From Candidatus Magasanikiibacteriota bacterium (GTDB lineage Bacteria > Patescibacteriota > Patescibacteriia > Magasanikbacterales > GWA2-37-8), in contig JACPGS010000029.1 of assembly GCA_016189025.1 (NCBI GenBank), forward strand, positions 15,911 to 79,910: a stretch of DNA of 64,000 bases, given 5' to 3'. Below the pieces are notes generated by a model. The model searched no databases. It was not told the DNA's origin and saw only the letters and a program-made list of their open reading frames with translations. This document shows positions 421 to 34,954 of the stretch, piece after piece; within the stretch, counting starts at the first letter, position 1, and every line of letters starts with the position of its first letter. Made by a program: the position numbers and the translations under genes.

Positions 421-575
421 TTAAAAAAATCCGGCCGTTGGTAAGGTGGCGGCCAAGATCGGCCGGAATTAAATCAATCGGATGCCAAAAAAAGAAGCCG
501 AACCAAGCGGCGAGCAAAATCAGGAGTAAGGCAGGCAGGAGACGCGGAATTAACCCCCCGCGCTCGCGGGACGGT

Positions 576-1628: not shown

Positions 1629-2020
1629 ACGCAGATTACACAGATTTAATTTGATTACACGGATGCCGTACTTTGGTACTAACGTTCCAGCATAACAGAA
1701 GTTGCGAAGTGAGCGTGGTGATAAAATTTTTGCGGAGCAAACCGCCTAAGCGAACGAGCAATTTGGGTGAGGCTCTGTAAGAGCCGAACCTGTTATGCTG
1801 TGTTAGCTTATGCTGTGTTAGCCGACCCGAGCCCGCAGGGCGAGAGCGCAGCGTGGTCGGAGGGAGCGAAGCGACCGACGAAGTACATTTTTACTATTCC
1901 CGATGCTGCGACTGCTTTTCACTCATTTGATTTAAAGGGCGAATTGGTTCCATTTTGGCGAGGGCAAGAGGGGTCGGGGGTGCATTGCCCAAGCCAAAAC
2001 ACTTATTGTTCGGTCCTTAG

Positions 2021-3163: not shown

Positions 3164-3407
3164 ACATTTATTGTTAAATTTGAATTAACCGCATATTCAC
3201 ATTATCACAATCTAGATTGATTTTCAAGTGACAGAAAGGAGCGAAAAAATACTTGCTGGCTGCCGAAAGCAGACAGCCCCCTCTTACAAAAAAAAGAATC
3301 AATTCGCCCCTCCTTATTAAAAATCCGAAAAGCGGAGCGGCAAAAAGGGAATGGTAAAAATGTATTTCGCCTAACTAGTTTTATGATTCTTTTACAGTCT
3401 TATTATA

Positions 3408-4841
3408 TCAGGCATTATTAGGCGGCGCAATGGCGGCGGGGGCGAAGACTTCCCGGAGGGTGGCAGGAGAAATTGTCCGTAAAAGCAGCGCCAGCAAGCC
3501 GTAAAGTAAGCCGCCGAGCCCCAGGGAAAGAATAAGGGGGAGCGGCTGGAGGGCGTAGATTGCCCCGCCCATGGCCCCGCTCGCCAGGATAATTTTAAGG
3601 AGAGTCGTAAGGCGGGGCCGCCAGCCACTGGCGCGGGCACAGAGTAGAGCAAGGCCGGCCCCGGCATAGAGTTCCGAGCCAATCGTTACCCCGATCGCGC
3701 CAGCGACGCCGTAGCGGGGGATGAAAATAAAATAGCCGATGAGAGACAGCAGCGCGTCGCTCCCGTAGATCAGGAGCGCGGTGGTTTGCCGGCCGATCGC
3801 CAAAGCGTAGTGGCCAAAGATCATGCCACCCGCCACTCCTAACAGCGACAGCGACAGTCCCTGCAGCATCCAGGCACCGGGGGCGAATTCTTTGCCGGCC
3901 ACGAAGGTCAGGACGCCGGGGGCAATGGCGATTAAACCAGCTACGGCCGGCCACAGCAATAAATTGATTAAATCAAACCCCAGTTGGGCGCGGCGCTGGA
4001 ATTCGGCAGTCAGATGCCGGCTCCAGGCGTGGGCGACGAGCGGCATTACCGTTCCCATAATCATCGCGGCGAGCTGAATGACAACCTCCACAATGCGATA
4101 ACTGGCGCCATATAGCCCCACAGTAGTCTGATCGGCAAACAAGGGCAGAATCACCCGGTCGCCCTGCAGGTAGACGGCGGTGGCAACAACGGCAAGAGCA
4201 GTGGGCCACATTTTGTGCCACAAGGCGCGCGAAATACTGCGGTCAAAGCAAAAGCGCAGGGGCCGGGCGCAGTAAGCTAGTATTAAAGCAGAGCCGAGGG
4301 CCGCGACCGTAACGGCGACCATAATGGCGGTAAATTGCTGACGGGCGACGAGGGAAAAGGCAATGCCGAGGAGCAGCAGGAGCCGGCCCAAAATTTCCGC
4401 TCCCATCACAATTTTCAATTTTAGCTGCTCCCGGAAATAGCCGATGAATACCTGGGACAGGGCAATGGCAAAAAATGCCAGGGTCAAAATTGCTACTGCT
4501 TGTTTCACTTCCTTAGGGTAAGGGAAAGCGAGAATCAGTAGCGGCGCTGCCCCCTGGAAAACAGTAGCCGAAATCAGCCGCCAGCTAAAGCAAGTATTAA
4601 GTACGCGGCGGCGGTCAAAGGTCGGTTCCGCGAGCAGCGCCGAGGTGGTGATAGTGAATCCGCCATCAGCCACCAGTCCCACAAATTGGAGGAAACCGGT
4701 GGCGGTTACATACCAGCCAAATTGTTCCACGCCCAAATAGCGCGTCATCAGGGCGATGGCAGCCAGCCCCAGCAGGGTGGAGACTAATTTACCCCCGAGT
4801 TGGATTAAGGTAGAGTGCGCCAGAGCGCGGGTGAGAGACAT
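3408..4841 (-). CDS. polysaccharide biosynthesis / oligosaccharide flippase (Wzx/MurJ-like MOP superfamily)
   Basis: 477 aa polytopic membrane protein with the N-terminal motif of Wzx-type flippases. Confidence 0.7.
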   Translation of the reverse strand: MSLTRALAHSTLIQLGGKLVSTLLGLAAIALMTRYLGVEQFGWYVTATGFLQFVGLVADGGFTITTSALLAEPTFDRRRVLNTCFSWRLISATVFQGAAPLLILAFPYPKEVKQAVAILTLAFFAIALSQVFIGYFREQLKLKIVMGAEILGRLLLLLGIAFSLVARQQFTAIMVAVTVAALGSALILAYCARPLRFCFDRSISRALWHKMWPTALAVVATAVYLQGDRVILPLFADQTTVGLYGASYRIVEVVIQLAAMIMGTVMPLVAHAWSRHLTAEFQRRAQLGFDLINLLLWPAVAGLIAIAPGVLTFVAGKEFAPGAWMLQGLSLSLLGVAGGMIFGHYALAIGRQTTALLIYGSDALLSLIGYFIFIPRYGVAGAIGVTIGSELYAGAGLALLCARASGWRPRLTTLLKIILASGAMGGAIYALQPLPLILSLGLGGLLYGLLALLLRTISPATLREVFAPAAIAPPNNA

Positions 4842-4947
4842 ATTTTAAGCTAACCAGCAATCAGCTAGCCAGCAGATTCAGCTAGTGGATGATAAGATGA
4901 TGAGAGTATAGCACGGAGGGCCGGACTCTGCTATACTTGAAGATTGT

Positions 4948-5952
4948 ATGCTTTGGCTGATTAAAAATATCTGGCGTGGGGGGGCGAGTGCTTTGATTTT
5001 ATTGGCTATTTTTGCGCAAACCGTTTCGGTATTAGCGGCGGAGGAAAGGGAAACAGCCGAGACGCCGACGGCGTCGGCCGTGGTTGAGGAAACGTTTAAA
5101 AAAGGCCCGGCCGTGCGGGTGTTAATAGCAGAACAAGGGAAGCCGGTAACAATGCGCTCCGAAGTGCCGGTTGCCGTGTATACTGGCGTGATATTGCGTT
5201 TAGAACTTCCTCCGGAAACATTGATTACGATTCGCCGCGAGCGCCAGGCTTTAACGATTGAGAGCGAAGGAGTTAGTTTTGGCACCGAGGAGCCAGTGCG
5301 GATAATGGCTGAAGATCCGCTGGCGGTTTTTACCCTGCCTGGTTTTGCCCGCAAATTATCGGGCTGGAAGCAGGATTTTAATCAGTATCGGGGAATTTTG
5401 GAACTGCGTTTGGCGAAAGACAAGAATCTGCTGTTAATAAACGAGCTGCCGCTGGAGGCGTATGTAGCCGCCATAGTGGAAACTAATGAGCGCGATCCGG
5501 AAGAATATACCAAGGCGGTGCTCGTGGCGGCGCGCACTTATGCGGTGGTTTGGCGGGAGGAGGCGCGCCGGCGCGGTCGGGCATTTGATCTGCGCGGGAG
5601 CACTCACGACCAGCTTTATTTAGGATACCAGGCTGAATTAGCCCAGCCCCAGGTGCGGCAGTGGGCAGGGGAGACTGCCGGAGAAGTGGTAACCTATGAA
5701 GGATCGCCCGCCGCCACGCTTTACTTTGGTCACTCCACCGGCAAAACCAAATCCTGGCCCAAGCGCCTGGGCGAGCGGCCATGGCTTACGAGCGTCGCCG
5801 CGCCTTATGATAAAAAGTTTAAACGACTGTATGGCCACGGCTACGGCATGAGCATGAACGACGCCCGCGAGCGCGCGCGGCGAGACAACGCCACCTACCA
5901 GGAACTGCTTGCCTATTATTACACCGGCACCCAGGTGGAGGTACGATATTGA
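4948..5952 (+). CDS. SpoIID/LytB domain protein
   Basis: 334 aa; signal/TM N-terminus; conserved LEAYVAAIVETNE…AVLVAARTYAV block of the SpoIID amidase-enhancer domain. Confidence 0.7.
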   Translation: MLWLIKNIWRGGASALILLAIFAQTVSVLAAEERETAETPTASAVVEETFKKGPAVRVLIAEQGKPVTMRSEVPVAVYTGVILRLELPPETLITIRRERQALTIESEGVSFGTEEPVRIMAEDPLAVFTLPGFARKLSGWKQDFNQYRGILELRLAKDKNLLLINELPLEAYVAAIVETNERDPEEYTKAVLVAARTYAVVWREEARRRGRAFDLRGSTHDQLYLGYQAELAQPQVRQWAGETAGEVVTYEGSPAATLYFGHSTGKTKSWPKRLGERPWLTSVAAPYDKKFKRLYGHGYGMSMNDARERARRDNATYQELLAYYYTGTQVEVRY

Positions 5953-6091
5953 AATTTTTACCTATGAACGAGCGGAGAAAAGATTGGGGGAACGACGGGG
6001 GTATTGAAGTTTTTGCGGCGTCACCGCCCTCTATTGACAATGTACTGACAATGTCATATAATGACAGCAGCTTATCCTTAGTCATTTTTTT

Positions 6092-6379
6092 ATGAACAGC
6101 ACCGTGCAATTGCGAGTAGACGCCAAAACCAAACGCGCCGTTTCTACGGTTTTTCGTAATCTGGGGTTAGATTTAAGCACCGGCGTAAAAATGTATTTTC
6201 AGCAGGTAATTCGTGAGCGCGGTATACCATTTCCCCTCATCACCGAGAACGGCTATACGGCCGAACAAGAAAAGAAGCTCCTGGCGATTGCCAAACAAAC
6301 GGAGAGCGACTATCGGCGCGGTCGCCGCCGCACCCAAACCTCGGTTAAAGCAATGGTTAAAGAGATTATGGCATCATAG
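6092..6379 (+). CDS. dinJ: type II antitoxin, RelB/DinJ family
   Basis: 95 aa, immediately upstream of a YafQ-like toxin, DinJ-like sequence. Confidence 0.75.
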   Translation: MNSTVQLRVDAKTKRAVSTVFRNLGLDLSTGVKMYFQQVIRERGIPFPLITENGYTAEQEKKLLAIAKQTESDYRRGRRRTQTSVKAMVKEIMAS

Positions 6380-6390
6380 GGTGACCCGAT

Positions 6391-6675
6391 ATGCAATACA
6401 CCCTGCGCTATTCTCGACAGTTTAAGCGTCAATATAAAAAACTAGAGCGATCCGGGAGGCCTGGCTTAGCGGGGAAACTGGACGCAATTATGAATATTCT
6501 TGCTAGCGGCCAAACGCTACCCGCCCGTTGTTTGAACCACCGGCTAGCCGGTCAATTGAATGGGCTGTGGGAATGTCATGTGGCGCCCGACTGGCTGTTA
6601 ATCTATCGCCTTCATCAAGATGTTCTAGTATTGGAATTTTTCGCCACCGGCACGCATACCCAGTTGTTTGATTAA
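6391..6675 (+). CDS. yafQ: type II toxin YafQ (RelE superfamily mRNA interferase)
   Basis: 94 aa; HVAPDWLLIYRL…ATGTHTQLF closely parallels E. coli YafQ HVEPDWILIYKL…RTGTHAALF. Confidence 0.8.
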   Translation: MQYTLRYSRQFKRQYKKLERSGRPGLAGKLDAIMNILASGQTLPARCLNHRLAGQLNGLWECHVAPDWLLIYRLHQDVLVLEFFATGTHTQLFD

Positions 6676-6715
6676 CCTGCGGATTAAACACGGGTATTGA
6701 CAAGTAAAAGCTAAC

Positions 6716-6744
6716 ATCTCCCCTGGGGCGGGGAGATTTTTTTA
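6716..6744 (+). terminator. rho-independent terminator after yafQ
   Basis: Hairpin tctcccc/ggggaga with loop tggggc followed by a T-run. Confidence 0.6.
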
Positions 6745-6758
6745 GCGTAAGATTATGG

Positions 6759-7313
6759 TTAGGCGGCCGGAGCGCTGCCGCCTTGATGATAACGCTTGTC
6801 CGCCTCCGAGAGGTCTAAAATCAAACGGCGCAGGCCGTGGGGGTCGGGCACGCGGCGGCCGACCTTTTTTGGCTGGGCGCCGGCGGTTTCAATAATCAGA
6901 TCGCCGTAGTGGAGTAGCGACGGCAGGGCGCCTTTTACTTCAGAAGTGGCGTTTTGAATCTGGTAAAGGTCAACCTCAAACACGCTGCGGGCGAATAGGC
7001 CGTGCTGTTCAATGCGAATCAGCCGATCGTTGGTGATGACCAAGAGATCCAGATAAAAATCGACAAAATAGGCGAAAGTCAGGAGCACCATAATCAGCAG
7101 ATAAATGCTGCCGGAAAGAATTAAGAGAGGCGAAATAACCGGATGATTTAACAGCGCCGGGAAGGCGCTAGCAATAAACAGATAAAGTCCGAGCGGCACG
7201 GCGAGCAATATTATCAGCAATAATAAAGGCAGCGCCAGGGTGGCCGGGCTGTGGCGCACCCGCGCCACAATATGCTCATAGGATTTTTGGCGGATGAAGT
7301 AAGAGAGCAGCAT
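6759..7313 (-). CDS. membrane protein with bacterial PH domain (YdbS/YdbT-like)
   Basis: 184 aa; two TM helices then a PH-like segment (LITNDRLIRIEQ…). Confidence 0.5.
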   Translation of the reverse strand: MLLSYFIRQKSYEHIVARVRHSPATLALPLLLLIILLAVPLGLYLFIASAFPALLNHPVISPLLILSGSIYLLIMVLLTFAYFVDFYLDLLVITNDRLIRIEQHGLFARSVFEVDLYQIQNATSEVKGALPSLLHYGDLIIETAGAQPKKVGRRVPDPHGLRRLILDLSEADKRYHQGGSAPAA

Positions 7314-7326
7314 GTTTCAGGTTAAA

Positions 7327-7620
7327 TTATCGTAAAGAGTCAAACGGCGAAAAAATTTCCTGGCTGGGAAAAACGTTGCCGAGCCAGGCGTTGTTCCAGA
7401 TAGGGAGCGGCTGTTGCCAATCGACTCCCTGCAGCAGCCACCAGGTGGACCAAAGAATAATCGCCGTTGCCGCGAGCAATAGGAAAGTCGCCAAAAAACT
7501 CCCCAGGGTAAAGGTGCCAGTGTGAGAAAAGTGGCCGACGTTGATGGCAAAAAAGACGGCAAAAAACAGCAGGAAGCCAAGGTAGACGAAGAGAAAAATA
7601 TAGAGCGGGAGGGTAATCAT
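7327..7620 (-). CDS. small hypothetical membrane protein
   Basis: ORF track 7327..7710 trimmed to the internal Met (MITLPLYIFL…) to avoid overlap with the upstream gene; hydrophobic. Confidence 0.4.
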   Translation of the reverse strand: MITLPLYIFLFVYLGFLLFFAVFFAINVGHFSHTGTFTLGSFLATFLLLAATAIILWSTWWLLQGVDWQQPLPIWNNAWLGNVFPSQEIFSPFDSLR

Positions 7621-7660
7621 GGTTTTTACTATAGCAGGTATTAGATATGAACTCAAACTC

Positions 7661-8275
7661 TCAATTCCGCACGTAATACCACACCGTCGCCAGGCCCCAG
7701 CCCAGGGCAAATTTGTCGGTATGAAAGCAGGTCAGGAAGGGCGCGTCTAAAGTGGCGGTAACGGAAATAATGCGGCTGCCGGGCTTTAGTTGTTGGCAGC
7801 GCTCGGTGAGTTGGGTTAAAAGATTTTCGCTAAAACAGGTGGCTTGAACAAAAATTACGTCCGCCTCGCTCCAGTCTTCGGTAAAAATATCGCCCGACCG
7901 GAAATTGATGTCTGGTTCGGGATAGCTCTGGGGCAGCGCCGGGCGGAGGCGTTGGTTAAATTTTTCCCGTACCGCCGCGGCGGTCTGGTAAAGTTCCGGG
8001 ATCAGCTCAATGCCGACTAAGCGGCGGAAATTCCCCAGGAGGGCGGCGAGTATCACCGCTTTGCCGGTGCCGCTCCCCAAATCATAAAAAGTGCCGCCGG
8101 GGGGTGCGTCGGCGGCGGCGAGCAGCGCCGGGAAGCTGGCAAAGTTAACTTCGCCGTAAGTGAGCTCTTTGGGCGGCGTTTGGCCCCAGTGTTGTTTTCC
8201 GGCGGCGGAGAGCCGGTAGCCGTCAATATCAGCATAAAGGAGGTTGAAGTAACGTTCGGCCAGACCCAGATTCAT
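7661..8275 (-). CDS. class I SAM-dependent methyltransferase
   Basis: YDLGSGTGKAVILAAL Rossmann SAM motif. ORF-track start 8368 lies inside a repeat element, so the likely true start is MNLGLAERY at 8275. Confidence 0.6.
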   Translation of the reverse strand: MNLGLAERYFNLLYADIDGYRLSAAGKQHWGQTPPKELTYGEVNFASFPALLAAADAPPGGTFYDLGSGTGKAVILAALLGNFRRLVGIELIPELYQTAAAVREKFNQRLRPALPQSYPEPDINFRSGDIFTEDWSEADVIFVQATCFSENLLTQLTERCQQLKPGSRIISVTATLDAPFLTCFHTDKFALGWGLATVWYYVRN

Positions 8276-8285
8276 ATTGTAAGAC

Positions 8286-8464
8286 TGTAGAAGAATGCTA
8301 ACTTTATCAGTATCCGCCTGGTCGCTATCGCTATTGCTAAGTTTAACCTGGTTGGTCGCGGCAGACACTCTTTGGGTGCTCCCCCGACTTTAGATCGGGG
8401 TGCGCGCCCAAAGACACTCGTCTGCCGCACCCTGATGCTAACTAGTTTTTCCCATTCTTCTACA
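8286..8464 (+). mobile_element. MITE-like repeat copy 1 (terminal inverted repeats tgtagaagaat/attcttctaca, internal long hairpin 8358..8428)
   Basis: About 88% identical to 45560..45739; 11-bp terminal inverted repeats; fills the whole intergenic space between the VKOR stop and the methyltransferase start. Confidence 0.65.
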
Positions 8465-8473
8465 ACCTCGTTG

Positions 8474-8944
8474 TTATAGGTTTTTTTCGTCTAGCGGCAG
8501 AGGCGTTTTTTTATTGTTGGCAGCGGATTTTTTGAAGTAGTAGAGAATCTGTATACCTAATACGAACAGTAGGGTAGAAGTAGCGGCGGAAACCAGGCAA
8601 TAGAGGCAATACGCGCCGATGACGAAAGCCTGGAGATAAAAAAACCAGAGGGTGGCGAGGAATCCCAAAACTGTTAGGCGAGCGAGCCAGCGCAGAATTA
8701 CTTCGCGACGGGTGTCCAGATAAGCCACGGCGCCCAAGAAGACGGCGAGATAATAGAGCGCTCCGAGGAGCGCCACCGGAATCTGATAGATCGTAGCGTA
8801 GCGGCTGGTGGTAACTACCTCGCAGCCCGCTAAGATTGAACAAGTCGGCGGCTCTCCTTGGTAGTGTTTAAGGGTAAGGTAACTGGCATCAACAAAACCC
8901 ACCAGACTGATTACCAGAAGGGCAAGGGCAAGCGGGCGAAGCAT
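8474..8944 (-). CDS. vitamin K epoxide reductase (VKOR) family protein
   Basis: 156 aa membrane protein with CSILAGC and CLYC motifs; adjacent DsbA-like gene. Confidence 0.7.
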   Translation of the reverse strand: MLRPLALALLVISLVGFVDASYLTLKHYQGEPPTCSILAGCEVVTTSRYATIYQIPVALLGALYYLAVFLGAVAYLDTRREVILRWLARLTVLGFLATLWFFYLQAFVIGAYCLYCLVSAATSTLLFVLGIQILYYFKKSAANNKKTPLPLDEKNL

Positions 8945-8956
8945 AGCGGAGCGCAG

Positions 8957-9673
8957 TTATTTTACGGCGGCGGCTACGGCATCGCGCAGAGCAGCAAAAT
9001 TGCCGGTGTGCCGCACGCCGTTTAAGAAGAAAGTGGGGGTGGCGTTCACGCCGGCGCCCCAGCCGCTCTCCTGGTCGGCGCGGATTTTATCGTCAGCCTC
9101 GGCCGCTTCCAGTTCAGCCGGGAATTTATTCAGGTCCAGCCCGAGGTCGCGGGCGTACCCCAAAAATAGCTCGCGCGCGCCGCCCTGGTCGCTCCATTCG
9201 CGCTGGCGTTCAAACAGCCGGTCGTGCATTTCCCAGAATTTATTCTGTTTGCCCGCGGCTTCGGCGGCGGCGGCGGCCAGTTTAGCTTGTTTGTGCTGCG
9301 GGAGCGGGAAGTGGCGATAAACAAAGCGGACGCGATCGCCAAGCTCGCGCATAATTTCTTGCACCGCCGGGAAAGCGGCCCCGCAAGCCGGGCACTGGAA
9401 GTCGCTGTATTCAATCAGCGTTACCCTGGCTTCGCGGTTGCCCTTAATCCAATCCCGCTCGGTGACAGTGGCCGGCGTGCCGACCGGACCAGCCGGCGCT
9501 TTATTAGTCAGGCGCGAGAGGCCGAAGACTACCAGCGCCAGAATCAAGATACTCCCGCCCCAAATAAGGAAACGACGCCTGGTTTGCGAGCGTCCGGCAC
9601 TGGCTGCCGCGGCGGCCCGTTCCTGCCGGCGCAATTGCCGCCGTTCGCGCTTGGTAAGCATTGGTTGTTCCAT
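8957..9673 (-). CDS. DsbA-family thiol:disulfide oxidoreductase (thioredoxin fold)
   Basis: FQCPAC active site, N-terminal TM anchor, next to VKOR. Confidence 0.8.
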   Translation of the reverse strand: MEQPMLTKRERRQLRRQERAAAAASAGRSQTRRRFLIWGGSILILALVVFGLSRLTNKAPAGPVGTPATVTERDWIKGNREARVTLIEYSDFQCPACGAAFPAVQEIMRELGDRVRFVYRHFPLPQHKQAKLAAAAAEAAGKQNKFWEMHDRLFERQREWSDQGGARELFLGYARDLGLDLNKFPAELEAAEADDKIRADQESGWGAGVNATPTFFLNGVRHTGNFAALRDAVAAAVK

Positions 9674-9694
9674 AAAAGGAGAGATGAATTATTA

Positions 9695-10342
9695 TTAGAT
9701 TTTGGTTAGCTGTTTTACTTCTTGGATAAAGAATCGTTTTACTGCCGGCCAAGAAATTTTGGTAAACATCTTGGGCATTGCTTGGGCGTCAGCTTCGGTA
9801 AAATAGGTGAGCGATTTATACAGATGATAGGGGTCGTAAGATACACCGGAGAATTGTTTCTGCAAAAAATTTAGCAACTGTTTCAAGGCGATTTGTTCTC
9901 GTTGCAAACAAAGATATAAATCGAGGAAATCCTTTTTGGTATTGCGTCCGGTAATCGCGCCGAGCTTCATCAGGGCAATATCGAGGGGGGTGGCCAAACG
10001 AATCCAGCCCCGGAAGCGAACCGGTTGCTGCCGGAGAGGATAGGGGAAAGTAATGAAGCTTACTTTCACGCCCGCCAGGATGCCTTCTACGGTGTTGGCC
10101 TCTTGATTAGTTAATTCAAAACGAGCCGTCTGTTTTAGTTGTTTTAGGAGCGGCGGGGCGGCAATATTTTTCGCGGTAAAAAAGTCCAAGTCCACCGATT
10201 GCCGGTGACCATAGTGCAGGGCGAGCGCCGTGCCGCCGGCCAAATAAAAATGCTGTAGCCAGCGTTTTCTGCTTAATTTGTTTAACAGACTAGCGGTGGC
10301 GGGGGCGAGCGTGCGGGCAAACATAGTTAGGCGATCTGCCAA
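9695..10342 (-). CDS. nucleotidyltransferase AbiEii/AbiGii toxin family protein
   Basis: AGGTALALHYGHRQSVDLDFF, the DUF1814/AbiEii N-terminal motif. Confidence 0.6.
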   Translation of the reverse strand: MADRLTMFARTLAPATASLLNKLSRKRWLQHFYLAGGTALALHYGHRQSVDLDFFTAKNIAAPPLLKQLKQTARFELTNQEANTVEGILAGVKVSFITFPYPLRQQPVRFRGWIRLATPLDIALMKLGAITGRNTKKDFLDLYLCLQREQIALKQLLNFLQKQFSGVSYDPYHLYKSLTYFTEADAQAMPKMFTKISWPAVKRFFIQEVKQLTKI

Positions 10343-10551
10343 AAATTTTTGGTTCGCCGCGAAGTGTTTTTACTGTGAGCGACAATCTGTTTAATGGCCG
10401 AGACGCCATACTGTTTTTTTAGCCACTGCACTGCCCGCCAGTCGCCTTTTTCGGTGAGGCGGGAAATAATAAAAGCGCGGTGTGCCGTTAAGCTAAGCTC
10501 TTGCTGGTCAACATCCCACATAAATTTTTTTACGGGGGCAGGCAGTGTCAT
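10327..10551 (-). CDS. small protein, putative cognate partner/antitoxin of the AbiEii-like gene
   Basis: 74 aa, overlaps the downstream AbiEii-like gene by 16 nt (operon). Confidence 0.4.
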   Translation of the reverse strand: MTLPAPVKKFMWDVDQQELSLTAHRAFIISRLTEKGDWRAVQWLKKQYGVSAIKQIVAHSKNTSRRTKNFWQIA

Positions 10552-10646
10552 ATTTAAGATATTGATACCATTATAACATATTTGATAACTAAATCAAACT
10601 GGGGATCAGGCGTTTAAAAAACGCTAGGGGGGCGGGGTTTTCGGCA

Positions 10647-10694
10647 AAGGGAGTATCAAAAATCCCGCATTGCCGCGGGATTTTTGATACTCCC
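10647..10694. promoter_or_regulatory. 21-bp perfect inverted repeat (agggagtatcaaaaatcccgc / gcgggatttttgatactccct, 6-bp spacer), followed by a second palindrome tgaaccgcgccgggttca
   Basis: Read directly from sequence; lies between the zinc-ribbon gene stop and the AbiEii-like operon start. Confidence 0.5.
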
Positions 10695-10775
10695 TGAACC
10701 GCGCCGGGTTCAGGGATACTCTTTTGTAGCTACCAAAGAGAGGTGCCCCTTTGACGTGTGGGGCGCACGGGAGTG

Positions 10776-11348
10776 CTAGTGGCCGGCGGAAGGCGGAGGG
10801 AGCCGGCGCTGCCGGCGATCGTCCAGCTGGTTGATGCGGCGCAGGAGGCCAATGAGCCAGCGCCAGAAGCGGTGTCGCCAGGAGCGCTGCCGCTTCTTGG
10901 CGAGCCAGGCATCGCGTTGGGCGCGGAACTCTTCCCAGAGACGTTCTTCCATATTGTCTCCGAGATTGAACTCGGCGATGACCTCTTCTCGCTCGCCGCC
11001 GCATTGGCTGCAGAACTTCTCATTCGGGTAGAACCAGGCAGTGAAGGCCGGCATGAAGTATTTGATTCCATCGAAGTATTCGATTCCATGCTCGTTAAAC
11101 CAGTCTGCCTGGAAGCATGACTTTTCGTGATTGTCGTTATACTTATGCTCAGAGCTACTATTCGTGTACACCCACTGCTCGAAACAGGCCTGGCAGTAGG
11201 GCGGGTAGAATCGCCGGAATTCATGACCGCACTCCGGGCATGCCCGCTCGCTATCCCCTTTCTCGCGCTTGCAGCCCGCACAATAGTCGTGAAAGGTGGT
11301 GTACTTCTGTTCGTCGAGCGTGTAATTCCAGTATTGCAGCCTTCCCAT
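10776..11348 (-). CDS. hypothetical double zinc-ribbon protein (four CxxC motifs)
   Basis: 190 aa with CAGC…CPEC and CQAC…CSQC; balanced composition, unlike the overlapping S/A/R-rich frames. Confidence 0.45.
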   Translation of the reverse strand: MGRLQYWNYTLDEQKYTTFHDYCAGCKREKGDSERACPECGHEFRRFYPPYCQACFEQWVYTNSSSEHKYNDNHEKSCFQADWFNEHGIEYFDGIKYFMPAFTAWFYPNEKFCSQCGGEREEVIAEFNLGDNMEERLWEEFRAQRDAWLAKKRQRSWRHRFWRWLIGLLRRINQLDDRRQRRLPPPSAGH

Positions 11349-11350
11349 GA

Positions 11351-11599
11351 TTACCTCCTTTTTTTCTTGTTTCGCCTTGGCTTCAAGCCGCCACGAAACA
11401 CTGACATTCCGTCGCCCCAGCCACCGCCGCCCACAAAAGGAGAGGCCAAGCCGCAGTCGAGGTCGGGGTGATTCATTTCCGTTTTGACAACGAGGTGCCG
11501 CCCGTTGCGTCCAGCCGGCGCTGTGGTGATCGTGACGATCACTTGCCCATTTTCAAATGGGATGGTGTTTTTTTTCTCCACCGGCAAACTCCTTTTCAA
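11351..11599 (-). CDS. hypothetical protein
   Basis: 82 aa, ends 3 nt before the next gene start (operon). Confidence 0.3.
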   Translation of the reverse strand: MKRSLPVEKKNTIPFENGQVIVTITTAPAGRNGRHLVVKTEMNHPDLDCGLASPFVGGGGWGDGMSVFRGGLKPRRNKKKRR

Positions 11600-11723
11600 A
11601 GAACCATGTTCTCCAACCGGCCCATTCCGATTGTTGAACAGAGTAGTATATCAGCTTTTGGCTAATTTGTCAATATTCTTGTCTATTTTTGACAATTAAA
11701 ATGTCTATAAAATATATTTATGC

Positions 11724-11752
11724 TTGACACAGATAAAAATTGATGCTATAAT
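11724..11752 (+). promoter_or_regulatory. sigma70-like promoter (TTGACA-17-TATAAT) for the TrmB-family regulator
   Basis: Perfect consensus hexamers with 17-nt spacing; the surrounding region carries repeated ATGTCTAT/ATAGACAT motifs. Confidence 0.5.
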
Positions 11753-11775
11753 ATAGACATAAAAATTGTCTATTT

Positions 11776-12534
11776 ATGAAACTTGACCAATTCTTATCGC
11801 ACATTGGCTTCAAAAATAATGAAGCCACAGTGTATCTTGCCACCCTGGAGAGAGGACCAATTTCACCGCCCCAGTTAGCGCGGGAAACCGGCCTGCCGCG
11901 TACCACGGTAAATTTGATTTTACGGCATTTAGTAGAGCGCGGCGTGGTGGGGAAAACGACCGTAAAAAAACGTGTCCGCTATCTTGCCGAACCGCCTGAT
12001 ACGTTGGTGAACAATCTCAAATCATTGATAAAATATGGAGAGGGATTGCTGCCGGAACTGGAGGCGCGTTACAACAAAAATGAGCGCAAGCCCCGCATTG
12101 TTTTTTACGAAGGTGAGACGGCGGTCCAAAAAGTATATGATGATACGCTCTTGGTGAAGCCGCCAGAAATTTTAGAATGGAACACGGATGCATATTTTGA
12201 TTTTGATCAGCACAAGGTAGACCCACATTATATTGATAAGCGAGTTAAGCTCGGCATTAAAGCCAAGCGTATCGCGGGCGCCGGCTCGCGCTGGCAAACT
12301 AAACATCAGCGCTATGACGCGGGTGAACTCGCTGAAACATTGATTGTTCCCAAAAATATCTTTTGGCCGGAGGTAGAAGTAAATGTTTATGGCAGTAAAG
12401 TTGCGTTTCTGAATTATGCCGAAGAGATGTCGCTGATTGTAGAAAGCAAAGCCATTGCCGACGCTATGCGGCAGGCCTATCAGTTAAGCTGGATCGGGGC
12501 GAAGAGTTTGGAGGTGAAGGACGAGGTTAATTAA
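11776..12534 (+). CDS. TrmB-family transcriptional regulator
   Basis: 252 aa, N-terminal winged HTH of TrmB type (…ATVYLATLERGPISPPQLARETGLPRTTVNLILRHLVERGVV…). Confidence 0.55.
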   Translation: MKLDQFLSHIGFKNNEATVYLATLERGPISPPQLARETGLPRTTVNLILRHLVERGVVGKTTVKKRVRYLAEPPDTLVNNLKSLIKYGEGLLPELEARYNKNERKPRIVFYEGETAVQKVYDDTLLVKPPEILEWNTDAYFDFDQHKVDPHYIDKRVKLGIKAKRIAGAGSRWQTKHQRYDAGELAETLIVPKNIFWPEVEVNVYGSKVAFLNYAEEMSLIVESKAIADAMRQAYQLSWIGAKSLEVKDEVN

Positions 12535-12622
12535 TTGAATATCCCAGCCAGCTTGTTAAGCGTAAGTTCATTGGAAAAACAAAAACCCCGACTGAATCGG
12601 AGTTTTTGTTTGGTCAAGCTAA

Positions 12623-12850
12623 TCAAGGCGCGGTAGCCAAGGCACCCAAGTGTTGTACCGAAAACTGGAACAAGTCAGCCGGTTTTAGACGTCGGGAAAC
12701 TTCAAGAATTTCAATGCCGATCACTTGTCGTCGTTTGTTCAAATCTAAAATTACACCAGTTTCTACTTCACGGCTTTTCCATACTTTTTCGCGACGGGTT
12801 TGCAAATGCAGGTACACTGCATCAGCTTCTCGGTCGTATTCTATCTTCAT
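12623..12850 (-). CDS. DUF2283 domain protein (putative antitoxin)
   Basis: MKIEYDREADAVYLHL… signature; paired with DUF4258. Confidence 0.6.
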   Translation of the reverse strand: MKIEYDREADAVYLHLQTRREKVWKSREVETGVILDLNKRRQVIGIEILEVSRRLKPADLFQFSVQHLGALATAP

Positions 12851-12865
12851 ATATTTAATGACCAG

Positions 12866-13087
12866 CTAATTATTCCTATCTGCCACTGATATTACCACAT
12901 ACCGGCCCGCCTCGACAACTAGAGTAACCCGTATATACTGTTTCCCCCAATGACGATAATGGTGGTAGCGATCTGGGCCGATAATCTCTCGTCGTTCTGG
13001 GAGATGTATTGTTTCTATTACATTTGTTTGCGGTATCCCCCGCCAGCGCATTCTATTTTTGGCATGGCGAGTGAAATAGATTTTCAT
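12866..13087 (-). CDS. DUF4258 domain protein (putative toxin)
   Basis: MKIYFTRHAKNRMRWRGI… signature. Confidence 0.6.
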   Translation of the reverse strand: MKIYFTRHAKNRMRWRGIPQTNVIETIHLPERREIIGPDRYHHYRHWGKQYIRVTLVVEAGRYVVISVADRNN

Positions 13088-13089
13088 AA

Positions 13090-14169
13090 TTATTCCGCCA
13101 GGGCGGGAGCCGGCGCTTCGGAAAGCGCCGCGGCCGGGGCTTCTTCCTCGGGCGGCTCGCCCCGCTCAATCACCTCCCACACCCGGTCGCGGATGGCATT
13201 CATCAATTTAGGATTTTCTTTCAGGAAGCGTTTGGCGGTTTCGCGGCCGACCCCCAGTTTTTCTTCGCCAGATAAATAGGAATTGCCTTTTTTCTCCACT
13301 ACCCGGTAGACCACCGCCGTATCCAGCAGGTCGCCGGCGAGGGAGATGCCCTCGTTATACATAATGTCAAATTCGGTGGTGCGGAAAGGCGCCGCCACCT
13401 TGTTTTTAACTACCTTTACTTTTACCCGATTGCCGATGATTTTATCGCCTTGTTTAATTTGGGCGGCGCGGCGGATTTCCAGGCGCACCGACGAGTAGAA
13501 TTTAAGGGCCACGCCGCCGGGAGTGGTTTCCGGATTGCCGAAGACGATGCCGATCTTCATGCGGGTCTGGTTGATGAAGATGACGATAGTTTTGCTTTTG
13601 CTGACGATGGCGGTAAGCTTGCGCAGAGCCTGGCTCATCAGGCGCGCCTGGAGCCCCATATGCTGCTGGCCCATCTCGCCTTCAATTTCCGCTTTGGGCA
13701 CCAGCGCCGCCACGGAATCTATCACAATTATGTCCACCGCATTGGAGCGCACCAGGGTTTCCACAATTTCCAGCGCCTGCTCGCCGGTGTCGGGCTGGGA
13801 GATTAGCAATTCATCTACTTTTACGCCAATGCGGCGCGCGTAATCCGGGTCGAGCGCGTGTTCCGCGTCCACAAAGGCCGCCAGACCGCCCCCGCGCTGC
13901 ACCTCGGCCACAATATGCTGGGCGAGGGTGGTTTTGCCGCTCGCTTCCGGGCCGTAAATTTCAATAATCCGGCCGCGCGGCACGCCGCGCACCCCCAGGG
14001 CAATGTCTACCGACAGACACCCGGTGGAAACCGTTTCCACCTGCATTCGTTTGGCCTCGCCAAACTTCATAATGGCGCCCTCGCCGAACCGGCTGCGGAT
14101 TTGCTCGATGGCGCTTTCCGCGGCCTTGAATTTTTCCCCGACTGCCTCCTTTAATCCTGGTTTTGCCAT
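13090..14169 (-). CDS. recA: recombinase RecA
   Basis: [10 protein letters not shown] Walker A, full-length RecA similarity. Confidence 0.97.
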
Positions 14170-14216
14170 ATTCAGGCAGTTAATTAATACGCGTTCCCCG
14201 TCCGCGGGTTAGTAAA

Positions 14217-14894
14217 TTAGTAAGCAGGTTTGCCAGGCCGGACAATGATATGGCGAACAACCGTAGTAGCCGCCCCGTGTTTGCGGCTCGCGGCTACGGT
14301 GACGGTATTTAGGCCCGGGGTCGCTGTCAGCGCAGACTCAAAAGTGCCTTGTTCGGTAACCACCGTAGCCTGCCCGTTGATGGTGAGTTTGGCTTCCGGT
14401 TCAGTTTTGCCCTGCACCAACAGGGTGCCCGGGGAAACCACTTCTCCCTCGCGCGGGGCAAAGAGGTTTAGCATCGGCGGCGCGATGGTGCTCTGCACCT
14501 GTTTGGTAAGAAAGAACAGAAACAAGGCAATGATACTGAAGATCGCAGCCCAGCGCAATAAGTGCCCCCAGGAAGCGAATCGAGAGAAATGGACGGGCCG
14601 GAACGGATGAACCGCAGTACTTTCCCCGGCGGCTAAACGCGACAGTTCCCACACGCATAGTCCGGCATCTAGCCCTAGGAATTCGGCGTAGCTGCGCAAA
14701 TAGGCGGCGCGGAATCCCCAGGAGCGCGGGAGTTCGGCGTAGCGTCCGGCCTCCAGGGCCGCCAGGTATTTGGCCGGTACCCGCGCCGCCACCGACGCGG
14801 CGGCGAGCGATAAAGACGCCGCTTCCCGGGCGGCGCGCAGACGCTCGGACAAGAGGGTGGGTTGGGGCAGCGCGGTGCGGCAGAGAACGGCCAT
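14217..14894 (-). CDS. helix-turn-helix (RodZ-like) membrane protein
   Basis: N-terminal XRE/RodZ-type HTH, one TM segment, C-terminal domain. Confidence 0.45.
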   Translation of the reverse strand: MAVLCRTALPQPTLLSERLRAAREAASLSLAAASVAARVPAKYLAALEAGRYAELPRSWGFRAAYLRSYAEFLGLDAGLCVWELSRLAAGESTAVHPFRPVHFSRFASWGHLLRWAAIFSIIALFLFFLTKQVQSTIAPPMLNLFAPREGEVVSPGTLLVQGKTEPEAKLTINGQATVVTEQGTFESALTATPGLNTVTVAASRKHGAATTVVRHIIVRPGKPAY

Positions 14895-14918
14895 ATTTTT
14901 TGTTTGGCGTGATTTAAT

Positions 14919-17213
14919 TTACGGCTCTTTTTCTTCCCTCGGTTCTGCCTCTTCCTGCGCTGTTTCGTCAAACACCGAACCGCCGGCGTCTAAGGTATCT
15001 GGCCCCTCGGCCAAAGCATCGGGTACGGCATCCGCTGCCGCTTCAGCGCCCATCAGCACTTCGCGCGGTTTAGCGCCATCAGCCGGCCCTACTATACCAG
15101 CTTCTTCCAGTTCGTCAAGCAGGCGGGCGGCTCGGGCATAGCCCACTTTCAGCCGGCGCTGCAAAAGCGAGGCCGAGGCCTTGCCCGATTCAGTAATCAC
15201 CTGCCGGGCATCATTAAACAGCGGATCCTGGTCATCGCTTAACCCGCCGAACAGGTTAAGCGTGCCACTGCTGCCCCCCGGGAGGCGCTGGGTAATGGCG
15301 TCATCATAAACCGGCGCCGCATCGCCCCGCAGATGTTCTACCACCGCCTTCATTTCGCTCTCGACCACAAAAGCGCCCTGGAGGCGTTTGGGTTTGGATA
15401 GTTCGGCTGTTAATAGCAATAAATCTCCGCGCCCTAGTAATTTTTCCGCTCCCGGCGTATCCAGAATGGTGCGCGAGTCAATTAGGGAAGCGACCGAAAA
15501 GGCGATGCGCGCCGGGATGTTGGCTTTCATTAGGCCGGTAATTACCTCTACGCTGGGTCGCTGGGTGGCTACCACCAGGTGAAGCCCGACGGCCCGCGCC
15601 ATCTGGGCCAGACGAATGATGCCGGCTTCCACTTCGGCCGGTGCCGCGGCCATCAGGTCGGCTAATTCATCCACTACAATTACAATATAGGGGAGCGGCG
15701 CGGCGGCGGTGCGGTTGTACGAAGCAAGATCGCGCGTGTGCGACTCGGCGAGTATGGTAAAGCGCCGCTCCATTTCGTTAATTGCCCAGCGCAGAGCATT
15801 GACGGTTTTGGTAGCGTCGGTTACGACCGGCGTCAACAGATGCGGAATGCCGTTATACAGAGTCAATTCCACCCGTTTGGGGTCAATCATTAAAAAGCGC
15901 AGAGTATCCGGCGTATGCTGGAATAGCAAAGAAAGGATAACCGCATTCAGGCAGACGGTTTTGCCCGATCCGGTGGCGCCAGCCACCAACAGGTGAGGCA
16001 AAGCTGCCAGATCCAGGCACCAGACCCGGCCGGCCACATCTTTACCCAAAGCCACGGTCAGTTCGCCGCGCCGCTCGCGGTATTCTTTGCTTTCCAAAAG
16101 TTCGCGCAGGGTTACCAGCGCTACCCGTTCATTGGGCACTTCCACCCCTACCAGGGGTTGGCCCGGGATCGGCGCTTCCATGCGGATAGGGTGAGCGGCC
16201 AGCGCCAGCGCCAGGTCATTGGTCAGGCCGGTTAGGCGCGAGAGCTTGACGCCTTTGGCAGGCTTTAAGGAATATTGGGTTACCGTGGGTCCCACTCGCA
16301 CCTCGCCCATCTCCACGTCAATGCCGAAGTGGTGAAAAGTTTCGCGGATAATTTCCGCGTTGGCTTTAATGTCGCCGGCGGTGGGTTTGCCGACGCCTTT
16401 GGTTAAGAGGGATAAAGGCGGCAGGCGATAAGACCGCCGCGGGAGCGATACGGTAGTGAGAGTTGGCGCCGCTTCCCCTGGCGCCGCGGTGGCGGGCGCT
16501 GTTGTTGCGGCGGCGGTCTCCGGCACCTCGGCGTCTTCCAGGGGGCGGCGGCGGAAGCGGCGAGCCTCTGACGCAGTTTCTTCTTCCCCGTCAGGTTCGG
16601 GCGGCAGTCGTTCGGAATAGCGACTCCAGTCAGATTCTTGCCGGGGGCGGCCAGCAGTCAGGCGCGACACTAAATTGGCAAGCGCCGACCAGGCCGCCCG
16701 CCCGGCGATACGGAGCGCCGGCCAAAAATTAGGCGAGCCGGAAAAGAAAATTAACAATCCGGCGACGAGCAGCGCCGCCAAAATAATTACAGCGCCCCAC
16801 AGTTCCAGAAATCCGGTGAGCAGCCAGGCCGTAAGGAGCCCCAGGAAGCCGCCCCCGGCGCGCCCTTCGCTAGCCGCCGCTAACATGAGGGTGCGGGCGT
16901 TTTGCAGGTGGAGCAGCCCGGCGGCGCCAGTGGCGAGCAAGATGATGCCAAGCAGCTGATGCCGGTTGCCGGAGGGCCGGCGGCGCACCAGGCGCCAGGC
17001 CGATACCAAAAGCAGTACCGGTACGGCATAGCGCAGCTCGCCCAGGCCAAGCGTCAAAAGCGCCGTTAAAAATTCGCCGGCCAGACCGGCGCGCTGATAA
17101 AAACCCAGCAGGGTAATAATGCCGGCGATAACCAGAAACAAGGCCAGCAGATTATTGCCGGTTTCCGGACGGCGCGCGGGGGCCGGAGTACGGGAGCGGG
17201 CAGGGCGGTACAT
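14919..17213 (-). CDS. ftsK: DNA translocase FtsK/SpoIIIE
   Basis: 764 aa; N-terminal TM segments, linker, GATGSGKTV Walker A motor domain, C-terminal gamma wHTH. Confidence 0.9.
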   Translation of the reverse strand: MYRPARSRTPAPARRPETGNNLLALFLVIAGIITLLGFYQRAGLAGEFLTALLTLGLGELRYAVPVLLLVSAWRLVRRRPSGNRHQLLGIILLATGAAGLLHLQNARTLMLAAASEGRAGGGFLGLLTAWLLTGFLELWGAVIILAALLVAGLLIFFSGSPNFWPALRIAGRAAWSALANLVSRLTAGRPRQESDWSRYSERLPPEPDGEEETASEARRFRRRPLEDAEVPETAAATTAPATAAPGEAAPTLTTVSLPRRSYRLPPLSLLTKGVGKPTAGDIKANAEIIRETFHHFGIDVEMGEVRVGPTVTQYSLKPAKGVKLSRLTGLTNDLALALAAHPIRMEAPIPGQPLVGVEVPNERVALVTLRELLESKEYRERRGELTVALGKDVAGRVWCLDLAALPHLLVAGATGSGKTVCLNAVILSLLFQHTPDTLRFLMIDPKRVELTLYNGIPHLLTPVVTDATKTVNALRWAINEMERRFTILAESHTRDLASYNRTAAAPLPYIVIVVDELADLMAAAPAEVEAGIIRLAQMARAVGLHLVVATQRPSVEVITGLMKANIPARIAFSVASLIDSRTILDTPGAEKLLGRGDLLLLTAELSKPKRLQGAFVVESEMKAVVEHLRGDAAPVYDDAITQRLPGGSSGTLNLFGGLSDDQDPLFNDARQVITESGKASASLLQRRLKVGYARAARLLDELEEAGIVGPADGAKPREVLMGAEAAADAVPDALAEGPDTLDAGGSVFDETAQEEAEPREEKEP

Positions 17214-17283
17214 ACTTACTTACGGTAGTATAGCACAGTCAAACGCTCCGCGCCTCAGAACCACGCGCCCGAGAGTTTGTCTA

Positions 17284-17310
17284 AAAAAATTCCCCGGCCA
17301 AACCGGGGGA
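17284..17310 (-). terminator. terminator-like hairpin followed by a U-run on the minus strand, upstream of ftsK
   Basis: aaaaaaa-tccccgg-ccaaa-ccggggga read on plus; on the minus strand this is a hairpin followed by a T7 run. Confidence 0.35.
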
Positions 17311-17567
17311 ACCAACCAAAGTTATTCTTCTTTCACTGCGAGAAGAGCTGGATGTTGCAAAAGCGCGGAGCGAATTTAGAAAACGGTGCCGGTCGTCGCT
17401 TCAAGCGGCGTGTCCGACAGGAGAGAGTATTGTTTTTAGATTCGCTCCGGTAGAAACATCAACTCTTTCGCAGCGAAAGAGCAGCAACCTTGCTGGCCAG
17501 AGCCATTGTAGAAAGGGGCGAAACATTTGTCAAGTGTATTTGTGCATAACTATCGGTCGGGTTTTCT

Positions 17568-17656
17568 GTGGATAACTTTATCAGATTTAACCTGGGACGA
17601 TTTTTTTTATTTTAACCCAGCCATTTTTCGGCAATTTCCGCAGGCAGTTATCCACC
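17568..17656. promoter_or_regulatory. DnaA-box motifs (TGTGGATAA perfect 9-mer at 17568-17576; TTATCCACC at 17648-17656) flanking an AT-rich tract
   Basis: Exact match to the DnaA box consensus; AT-rich gattttttttattttaac between them. Confidence 0.4.
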
Positions 17657-17665
17657 GCTTTACAT

Positions 17666-17694
17666 TTGACAAATTTTTGGCTTTCCGGTAAAAT
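17666..17694 (+). promoter_or_regulatory. sigma70-like promoter (TTGACA-17-TAAAAT) for rpoB, with a leader of about 230 nt
   Basis: Hexamers and spacing read from sequence. Confidence 0.45.
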
Positions 17695-17926
17695 GGCGCT
17701 ACTTTAATTCAGCTTCTCTCTGGCGTTAGCACTGCCGCAAGCGGAAAACCCTTCCCCGGTCGGCGGTCAATGCAGAGCGCGCTGGCAAAGAGGACGCGGC
17801 GTAACTCACTTTCCATGATGTTAACGTCACCGCCTAACCTCGGCGTGGACCGGCGTACGAAATAGGTTGCGATCAACACTCTTTATCTGACAGAGCGTTT
17901 TTTGTTGTTGTGTTAAATTTATTTTT

Positions 17927-21244
<3,318 letters not shown>

Positions 21245-30128: not shown

Positions 30129-30749
30129 ATGAAATATAGAGAAATACTCATCAGTCAGCTCAAATCTTTGCCTTATTTTAGCAAAGAAACGGTCGTATTG
30201 CTTAGCAAACAGTACGATCTGAAGCCCGCTACAGTTGATTCCTACATCAGCCGCTCTTTGGCGCGCAAAGATTTTATTGCCTTTAAAAATGGATTGTATG
30301 TTACGGCTGATTTTTATTACCAGAACGCCGGAGATATCTCGTACACATTTTATTTGGCCAATATAATGTGTCCGCCTTCGTACGTAAGCTCCTGGTCAGC
30401 TCTGCAGTACTATGAACTCGCCACCGAGGCCATTGGCACGGTAACGTCGGTAACGGCCAAAATTACCAGGATCCATAACAATCGGGCCGGGAGTTTTTCC
30501 TATCAGTTTATTAAAAAAAATTTATTTTCCGATTTTACCCTGATCCGGGGGAAGTTCGATTTTTTTATTGCCACGCCCGCTAAAGCGCTGTTTGATCTTA
30601 TCTATTTTAAAACTCACGCGTTCCGCGGCATCCGCGACATCGCCGCCGTAGATGGGATGATTGACAGTTTGCGCATTGATATTGCCGAAATGGAAACAAA
30701 AGAGCGCGATGCCTTTTATACAAAAGTAAAAAAATATTTGAGCATATGA
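30129..30749 (+). CDS. AbiEi-family antitoxin-like protein (type IV TA)
   Basis: 206 aa, N-terminal wHTH-like AbiEi_4 pattern (…IAFKNGLYVT…); overlaps the downstream AbiEii gene by 4 nt; about 38% GC. Confidence 0.55.
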   Translation: MKYREILISQLKSLPYFSKETVVLLSKQYDLKPATVDSYISRSLARKDFIAFKNGLYVTADFYYQNAGDISYTFYLANIMCPPSYVSSWSALQYYELATEAIGTVTSVTAKITRIHNNRAGSFSYQFIKKNLFSDFTLIRGKFDFFIATPAKALFDLIYFKTHAFRGIRDIAAVDGMIDSLRIDIAEMETKERDAFYTKVKKYLSI

Positions 30750-34892: not shown

Positions 34893-34954
34893 AGGCGCAG
34901 CTGGTAGCTGGTAGGAAGTAGCTGGTAGGCGAACGGCAAAAATTTGTATGCTAT

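Follow-up and report, generated by a model that had tools for sequence, protein, structure and literature searches.

DnaA is nearly universal in bacteria and recognizes the consensus TTATNCACA. Its binding sites also lie at promoters, such as those of dnaA, mioC and nrdAB in E. coli and of sda in B. subtilis, and at the DnaA-box clusters of the latter species; at mioC and dnaA of E. coli, DnaA represses transcription. E. coli datA and DARS and the B. subtilis DnaA-box clusters are known as non-origin sites that handle DnaA itself. Further DnaA-regulated promoters outside oriC have been described for gidAB-parAB of P. aeruginosa (PMC13438810) and in the DnaA-binding landscape of E. coli (PMC11317965). 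The intergenic region reported here resembles these promoters in that one to three 9-mer boxes stand beside or between sigma-70 promoters, outside a skew-defined origin, and in that closely spaced pairs of sites occur. Unlike them, it has as its target a structured non-coding RNA with divergent rpoBC, and regulation by DnaA is here a prediction. No DnaA target of that kind was found in the literature searched, and literature searches for small RNAs under DnaA control gave nothing relevant.

Two described non-coding RNAs are useful for comparison. CcnA of Caulobacter crescentus, whose gene lies at the origin and is under CtrA control, base-pairs with the ctrA and gcrA mRNAs (PMC8959179). The likeness lies in the logic: the promoter of a non-coding RNA is placed under a master regulator of the cell cycle or of replication, so that replication state is passed on to expression. 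In contrast, the RNA described below shows no similarity to CcnA in sequence or structure and comes from a different phylum. The second is 6S RNA (SsrS; Rfam RF00013), whose features are compared here after PMC8414754. Both RNAs are rods of about 175-200 nt, closed by an outer stem with small bulges, opened on the 5' side by a large single-stranded bulge and capped by an apical stem-loop. They also have in common a strong housekeeping promoter, a single copy per locus, conservation throughout a clade and a link to RNA polymerase genes.

The window, i.e., the whole 64-kb stretch of DNA analyzed, belongs to a Candidatus Magasanikbacteria (CPR/Patescibacteria) MAG and contains a 713-bp gap bracketed by ftsK (14919-17213, minus strand) and rpoB (17927-21244, plus strand), the product of the latter being 77% and 72% identical to RpoB of two CPR MAGs. 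In a first-pass annotation, this gap had been read as resembling an origin of replication, with regulation of the rpoB promoter or of ftsK by DnaA boxes as the fallback. We consider it likely, judging from the sequence, that the gap is instead a DnaA-controlled divergent promoter pair serving rpoBC and a new structured small RNA, and not an origin. The gap has a GC content of 47.7%, versus 52.5% for the window, and holds two near-consensus sigma-70 promoters arranged back-to-back about 130 bp apart. The switch in gene orientation that had been claimed here is real: genes at 576-17213 lie on the minus strand, with two exceptions (4948-5952 and 11776-12534), and those at 17927-39112 lie on the plus strand. 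Further changes of orientation follow at about 39.1 kb and 48.4 kb.

The structured small RNA gene occupies positions 17284-17498 of the minus strand (about 215 nt with its terminator) and was recognized from its fold, its homologues and its covariation; the core described by the covariance model spans 17319-17492, about 175 nt. Its sigma-70-type promoter, TTGACA-17-TACAAT at 17505-17533 on the minus strand, scored 11 of 12 matches in the promoter scan and places the predicted start site at about 17498. At the other end, an intrinsic terminator at 17283-17308 on the same strand, consisting of CCCCGGUUUGGCCGGGG followed by the U-run AAUUUUUUU, was found both by folding and by a terminator scan (17308 to 17292 plus the U-run). 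The RNA is conserved, covarying and defined in strand, and its promoter and terminator are present in the sequence, from which we infer the transcript ends and abundance. An independent gene for a small RNA is thus recognizable by its own promoter, its terminator (found for the window and 20 of 39 relatives), its covarying structure and its defined strand.

The minimum-energy fold of the RNA reaches -92.1 kcal/mol (z = -7.4), and none of 200 shuffled sequences folds as well. Its shape is that of a long irregular hairpin or rod. From the outside inwards, it comprises a 19-bp stem P1 (UUUUCU...GCUGCG paired with CGCAGC...AGAAAA), a stem P2 of 9 + 4 bp, a sequence-conserved internal loop of 6 x 9 nt in which CUCAAC faces UUAGUUAAA, a stem P3 of 12 + 4 bp, an asymmetric, one-sided 5' bulge of about 11 nt that holds an invariant CUCUCUC, and an apical hairpin with a stem of about 12 bp whose sequence varies freely. 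The same architecture was obtained for all 40 distinct core sequences, each folded individually. In a 30-sequence alignment, 88.9% of the cells were paired versus 37-47% in slid controls, 22 of 48 pairs showed changes on both sides, and none of 500 shuffles reached any of the observed measures. RNAalifold, applied to a 44-row model-based alignment, independently recovered P1 and P2 as well as the base of P3 and found 16 compensatory pairs. The strand is fixed by conserved tandem G-U pairs in P3; accordingly, the covariance model gives 108.7 bits on the minus strand of the window versus 45.8 on the plus strand.

No Rfam family was assigned to the RNA at the gathering threshold over the whole window. 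Searches at E <= 10 with the gap, the RNA alone, locus L091 and 11 homologous loci returned just tRNAs and chance hairpins, for example plant miRNA precursors, with no match of the RNA to 6S RNA, SRP RNA, RNase P RNA or tmRNA. No description of the RNA was found in the literature searched, and searches for 6S or other non-coding RNAs of CPR/Patescibacteria likewise gave nothing relevant. The RNA is a previously undescribed family of Magasanikbacteria-like CPR bacteria.

The surrounding gene order is also retained. Synteny of recA, a rodZ-like gene and ftsK on one side with rpoB and rpoC on the other is kept in relatives, whose FtsK proteins are about 55-58% identical over their full length; those of L001 and P0008 reach about 73% identity over the conserved C-terminal two-thirds. 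Searches with nhmmer found the element in every related rpoB-ftsK gap, always on the ftsK strand (L001, L082, L086, L091, L093 and L094). A degenerate 29-nt pattern taken from the most conserved stretch matched 37 metagenome contigs, and in nearly all of these rpoB and/or ftsK adjoins the RNA. The resulting set comprises 42 distinct loci with 40 distinct core sequences; the loci are phylogenetically related, and counts over them are not independent. The covariance model detects a single full-length copy in each locus; it scores 108-185 bits, and the reverse strand scores lower. Further afield, a more distant Parcubacteria MAG (L003) has a marginal match (E = 0.003) that contains AAUCUCUCUCC and lies upstream of rpoB in divergent orientation; no credible covariance-model match was found in the other CPR loci L002 and L004-L007.

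Two arrangements are seen among these loci. In the common one, rpoB-rpoC and the RNA are divergent, and ftsK-rodZ-recA come after the RNA. In the second, tandem one, the RNA lies upstream of rpoB in the same orientation (L108, L113/L119, L126, L129 and L131), with a tRNA-Leu gene between them in L108, L126, L129 and L131; ftsK was not detected in the tandem loci, and the DnaA box is retained in them except in L126. Since the RNA stays beside rpoB where ftsK is missing, it follows rpoB and not ftsK. Downstream of the RNA, a terminator hairpin and U-run are found in 20 of 39 relatives, and in the others P1 is followed by a U-run, by a tRNA-Leu gene or directly by ftsK. Four loci (L109, L120, L124 and L125) have no terminator between the RNA and ftsK, and read-through into ftsK is possible there. 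In L098, L126 and L131, a tRNA-Leu gene begins about 10-20 nt past the 3' end of the RNA. The window itself contains no tRNA or tmRNA gene detectable by ARAGORN.

Three DnaA boxes lie inside the gap, within a stretch of 116 bp, and two of them match TTATNCACA exactly. Box A, TTATGCACA, is an exact match to this wider consensus at 17541-17549 on the minus strand, 7 nt upstream of the -35 element of the small RNA; it had been missed in the first-pass annotation. The two boxes that had been listed there both exist. Box B is a perfect TTATCCACA on the minus strand (its complement on the plus strand reads TGTGGATAA), although its coordinates had been given one base off, as 17568-17576, and the site is actually at 17567-17575. 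Box C, TTATCCACC, with one mismatch, lies at 17648-17656 on the plus strand as described, 9 nt upstream of the -35 element of rpoB. Boxes B and C are 72 nt apart (about 70 bp had been stated) in opposite orientations, and together with their flanks they form a perfect 10-nt inverted repeat, AGTTATCCAC. Counted over the 64-kb window, sites with at most one mismatch to TTATCCACA number 16 (three of them the boxes of the gap) versus 9.5 expected, 16 being reached by 5 of 100 shuffles, and exact matches to TTATNCACA number three versus 1.24 expected, two of these being in the gap, 26 bp apart. Taken alone, these counts are of modest significance over chance; the boxes are regarded as more than chance because they are conserved in relatives.

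This conservation is seen most clearly at the promoter of the RNA. Each of the 42 distinct loci has a TTGACA-16/17/18-TAnAAT-like promoter where one is expected. Within the 35 nt upstream of its -35 element, an exact TTATNCACA occurs in 22 of the 42 loci versus 0.09 in shuffles, and a box with at most one mismatch in 32 of the 42 versus 2.0 in shuffles, whereas other 35-nt windows of the same loci contain an exact box in 0.23% of cases and one with at most one mismatch in 2.7%. The distance from box to -35 element is 0-12 nt, so that a consensus box is held at a near-fixed promoter position in these 32 loci; in the remaining 10, no recognizable box is found at the RNA promoter. Over the 500 nt upstream of the RNA, box density is 2.96 per kb versus 0.52 per kb in the background. 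The promoter box is found in both orientations, and the sequences flanking it in different lineages are unrelated, which argues for selection on the box itself and not for mere inheritance of the sequence. The window, L093 and L103 share a box that stands 9 nt ahead of the -35 element of rpoB, in the same orientation; in other loci, boxes lie 70-95 nt upstream of that element. The number and arrangement of the remaining boxes are not conserved, and many relatives have one or two. From these comparisons, the DnaA box is shown to be a conserved part of a promoter in the gap, and DnaA is predicted to bind it. The fallback reading, that the boxes regulate a promoter, therefore gains support. At rpoB, the box next to the -35 element recurs in just some relatives; the conserved box belongs mainly to the small-RNA promoter, which had gone unnoticed.

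The promoter that had been proposed for rpoB, TTGACA-17-TAAAAT, was recovered at 17666-17694 on the plus strand by the promoter scan with 11 of 12 matches, as a sigma-70-type promoter of rpoBC. With this promoter, the 5' UTR would be about 226 nt long (17701-17926). A structured leader in this UTR was considered and rejected, given its fold z-score of -0.63 and its lack of sequence conservation in relatives. In the relatives compared, conservation outside the boxes and promoters is absent from the remaining inter-promoter DNA and from the rpoB 5' UTR alike. Short ORFs in the gap were also rejected as coding, since they overlap the RNA and lack conservation, and since compensatory changes and indels occur in the RNA. 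On the other side, past the terminator of the RNA, a separate extended -10 promoter seems to serve ftsK: the putative motif TGcTATACT at 17227-17235 on the minus strand, read from the sequence and not scored by the promoter scan, lies 13 nt ahead of the ATG and would imply a near-leaderless mRNA. Similar TGnTAnAAT motifs precede ftsK in L091, L093 and L094. A near-leaderless ftsK mRNA is consistent with the scarcity of Shine-Dalgarno sites in this organism, a Shine-Dalgarno-like motif being present in just 6 of 50 window genes.

In the mechanism proposed for the gap, one promoter would drive rpoBC rightwards and the other would drive a stand-alone RNA of about 175-215 nt leftwards, which would stop at its own terminator, upstream of the ftsK promoter. 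The three boxes, set between and against the two -35 elements, would most probably act as operators for DnaA. By this means, DnaA would tune transcription of the RNA according to the state of replication initiation, and probably that of rpoBC likewise. By analogy with E. coli mioC and dnaA, we lean towards repression rather than activation, since both core promoters already approach the consensus and a box abuts the -35 element.

Two other readings of the boxes have to be weighed against this promoter-based one. At oriC, the top-strand GC skew is expected to turn from negative to positive. Like a bacterial oriC, the gap has DnaA boxes in both orientations with an A/T run in between and divergent flanking transcription, and the boxes, three within a short distance and two of them exact, are kept in the homologous gaps of relatives. 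It could accordingly be an oriC or a second origin, where DnaA, oligomerizing on the boxes, would melt the A/T tract, with transcription of the RNA and of rpoB helping activation. This is scarcely probable. Unlike an oriC, the gap coincides with no skew switch: top-strand GC skew is +0.055 over 1-17213 and +0.074 over 17927-39112, it is zero or higher in all 2-kb windows of the 64 kb, and the cumulative curve is monotonic, with its minimum at position 100, away from the gap, and its maximum at 63,500. At third codon positions, the top-strand skew is positive (+0.03 to +0.31) for all minus-strand genes left of the gap, as expected for lagging-strand genes, and the mean top-strand skews of plus-strand (+0.088) and minus-strand (+0.051) genes are both positive. 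The positive skew on both sides places the whole window on one replichore, with the ftsK-side genes on the lagging strand. The AT-rich stretch noted between the boxes does exist, as the tract gattttttttattttaac at about 17599-17616 between boxes B and C, but it is short (18 nt) and unremarkable in composition, 17 other places in the window being more AT-rich over 40 nt. A search for DnaA-trios gave a single WAR x4 match in the gap, which is the A-run itself, 25 nt from box B; such runs number 9 in the window versus 4 expected. Neither AT composition nor this search, then, yielded a distinctive unwinding element in the gap. The statement that dnaA and dnaN are missing from the window was borne out: with a query validated as DnaA by Pfam, tblastn detected dnaA neither in the window nor in the 131 related loci searched (1.43 Mb of sequence), and Pfam/NCBIfam scans found neither DnaA nor DnaN among window ORFs of about 330-480 aa and several other large ORFs. 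Nor does dnaA lie near the locus in any of the 42 relatives. Three boxes are, moreover, few for an origin, many relatives having fewer still, and their placement is tied to -35 hexamers, the best-conserved box keeping a fixed position relative to one of them. On the skew evidence from the 64-kb window, a replication origin is not supported here, and the gap is better read as a transcription-control region; DnaA boxes and a strand switch are insufficient for calling one. Close-set boxes that are conserved across relatives in a context unlike that of an origin might also form a cluster that titrates or recycles DnaA in the manner of datA, DARS or the B. subtilis clusters, the nearby promoters being incidental. 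We hold this to be highly improbable, since the element that is conserved is a single box next to one -35 hexamer, at the 0-12 nt distance typical of an operator, while the count and layout of the other boxes are not conserved. DnaA control of the two promoters thus remains the preferred reading of the boxes.

As for the function of the RNA, a tentative proposal, which we would not put higher than a possibility, is a 6S-type protein-binding riboregulator that docks on RNA polymerase. It is suggested by the rod shape with its long closing stem, large single-stranded 5' bulge and apical hairpin, and by the single copy per locus, the very strong promoter and the persistent linkage to rpoB. In shape, the RNA comes closest to 6S RNA, whose description it fits loosely. 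A 6S-like size and a rod with a 5' bulge are found in all 40 members, but the geometry differs: the RNA has a one-sided bulge of about 11 x 0-2 nt, a two-sided internal loop of just 6 x 9 nt and a short apical stem. The RF00013 covariance model finds no match at E <= 10 in the gap, the RNA alone, L091 or the 11 homologous loci, and a DnaA box at the promoter is no known feature of 6S genes. A 6S-style rearrangement hairpin in the 3' strand was also considered and is unsupported, the candidates being weak, at -1 to -5 kcal/mol, and differing between family members.

Other functions can be envisaged for the same transcript. The invariant CUCUCUC, always in a predicted single-stranded bulge, could let a base-pairing small RNA act on purine-rich sites in mRNAs. 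Such a role is unlikely, given that Shine-Dalgarno-like motifs are rare in the window genes, that duplexes with the start regions of 50 window genes average -6.8 kcal/mol versus -8.2 for gene interiors, i.e., without enrichment, and that the large conserved helical scaffold exceeds the needs of a seed-presenting small RNA. We consider it very unlikely that the RNA instead acts in cis, as a 5' leader or processing module for the ftsK-rodZ-recA or tRNA-Leu-rpoBC genes that follow it, for example a stabilizing or attenuating structure. The four loci in which no terminator separates the RNA from ftsK would suit such a module, as would the three in which tRNA-Leu starts just past its 3' end. In the window, as in 20 of 39 relatives, a strong terminator nevertheless follows the RNA, ftsK has a -10 element of its own, unrelated genes follow the same RNA in the two arrangements, and sequence conservation is highest in the internal loops and not in any expression platform. 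Of the functions discussed, the 6S-type one is preferred.

CPR bacteria have tiny genomes and few recognizable regulators, and their non-coding RNAs and their coordination of replication with gene expression are almost unstudied. The noteworthy result of this work is the RNA family together with its DnaA-box promoter, which provides a concrete case from the CPR: an RNA unmatched in Rfam, tied to RNA polymerase genes and transcribed from a promoter with a conserved site for the replication initiator. If control by DnaA is true, the role of this protein as a transcription factor would come to include a riboregulator and rpoBC, and this in a major uncultured lineage. It is a further and more doubtful step to suppose that the RNA is the missing polymerase-docking 6S-type regulator of these ultra-small bacteria, with its gene under direct control of DnaA. 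Should both the 6S-type function and the DnaA control prove true, the initiator would set global transcription capacity from one compact region, through a 6S-like RNA and rpoBC. This would be a circuit coupling replication to transcription that is undescribed in any bacterium.

Among related CPR bacteria, the small RNA that the window encodes between ftsK and rpoB sometimes has a different neighbor. A tRNA-Leu gene with the anticodon UAA lies 3' of the small RNA at five of the loci compared with the window (L098, L108, L126, L129, and L131; e.g., L129 932-1013 and L108 1173-1254), and in some of them no more than about 10-20 nt separate the two genes. At four of these loci (L108, L126, L129, and L131), the small RNA, tRNA-Leu, and rpoB follow one another in this order on one strand. 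The position of tRNA-Leu downstream of the small RNA, together with rpoB on the same strand, suggests that these relatives co-transcribe the genes and process the transcript with RNase P.

In L003, a locus of a Parcubacteria MAG, the region upstream of rpoB contains a roughly 105-nt repeat (GATGAGATGCGAAGGGCTGGAGGC...) in two minus-strand copies (5225-5330 and 5530-5640). Each copy is followed by a long hairpin, the second of which is a marginal match to the RNA covariance model. In the Magasanikbacteria-like locus L089, located on a 550-kb contig and encoding the FtsK protein P0097, the rpoB-ftsK adjacency is absent. The 89 bp between ftsK and the pilin-like (N_methyl) genes upstream of it are too few to accommodate the small RNA, and the covariance model found no copy within the 12-kb locus.

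DnaA-like sites also occur elsewhere in the window. The sole other exact TTATNCACA box, TTATGCACA at 63915-63923, sits at the right edge in a very AT-rich intergenic stretch (63860-63989; at most 20% GC over 40 nt), which is truncated by the window end. A DnaA-like 9-mer with one mismatch, TTAACCACA, is found at 44126-44134, in the gap upstream of a 1158-aa ORF (40395-43871, minus strand) for which Pfam and NCBIfam scans gave no match.

The wider window contains several further features. An AbiEii-type nucleotidyltransferase toxin was identified by domain match (30129-32029, plus strand); an ORF upstream of its gene likely encodes the antitoxin. The toxin gene lies inside an island at about 29-33 kb, whose low GC (0.42-0.47 vs 0.52) suggests horizontal acquisition. 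A second, separate low-GC patch carries a Fic/DOC-HTH gene (51239-52192). A 370-aa reverse transcriptase (Pfam RVT_1; 48405-49517, plus strand) is directly preceded by a 535-nt non-coding gap (47871-48404). Rfam returned no match for this locus (47871-49517); candidate identities are a retron, a diversity-generating retroelement, and the remnant of a group II intron. Metabolic genes include a polyamine-type cluster (33465-38455, plus strand) encoding a PLP-dependent Orn/Arg decarboxylase, a protein similar to deoxyhypusine synthase, and a member of the arginase/agmatinase family. An ATP-grasp/citrate-binding protein encoded at 57735-58898 is similar to ATP-citrate lyase or the beta subunit of succinyl-CoA synthetase.

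A Shine-Dalgarno-like motif (GGAG, GAGG, or AGGA) no farther than 20 nt from the start codon is present in only 6 of the 50 window genes. In many genes, a TATAAT- or TACAAT-like hexamer is located 8-15 nt 5' of the ATG, a pattern which suggests that leaderless or very short-leader mRNAs are widespread here. At the small-RNA gene itself, the short ORFs that gene-calling and ORF-finding programs predict, either over it or antisense to it, are spurious (90 aa at L093 4699-4971; 41 aa at 17401-17526 in the window). The locus is probably mislabelled as "hypothetical protein" in public annotations of these MAGs.
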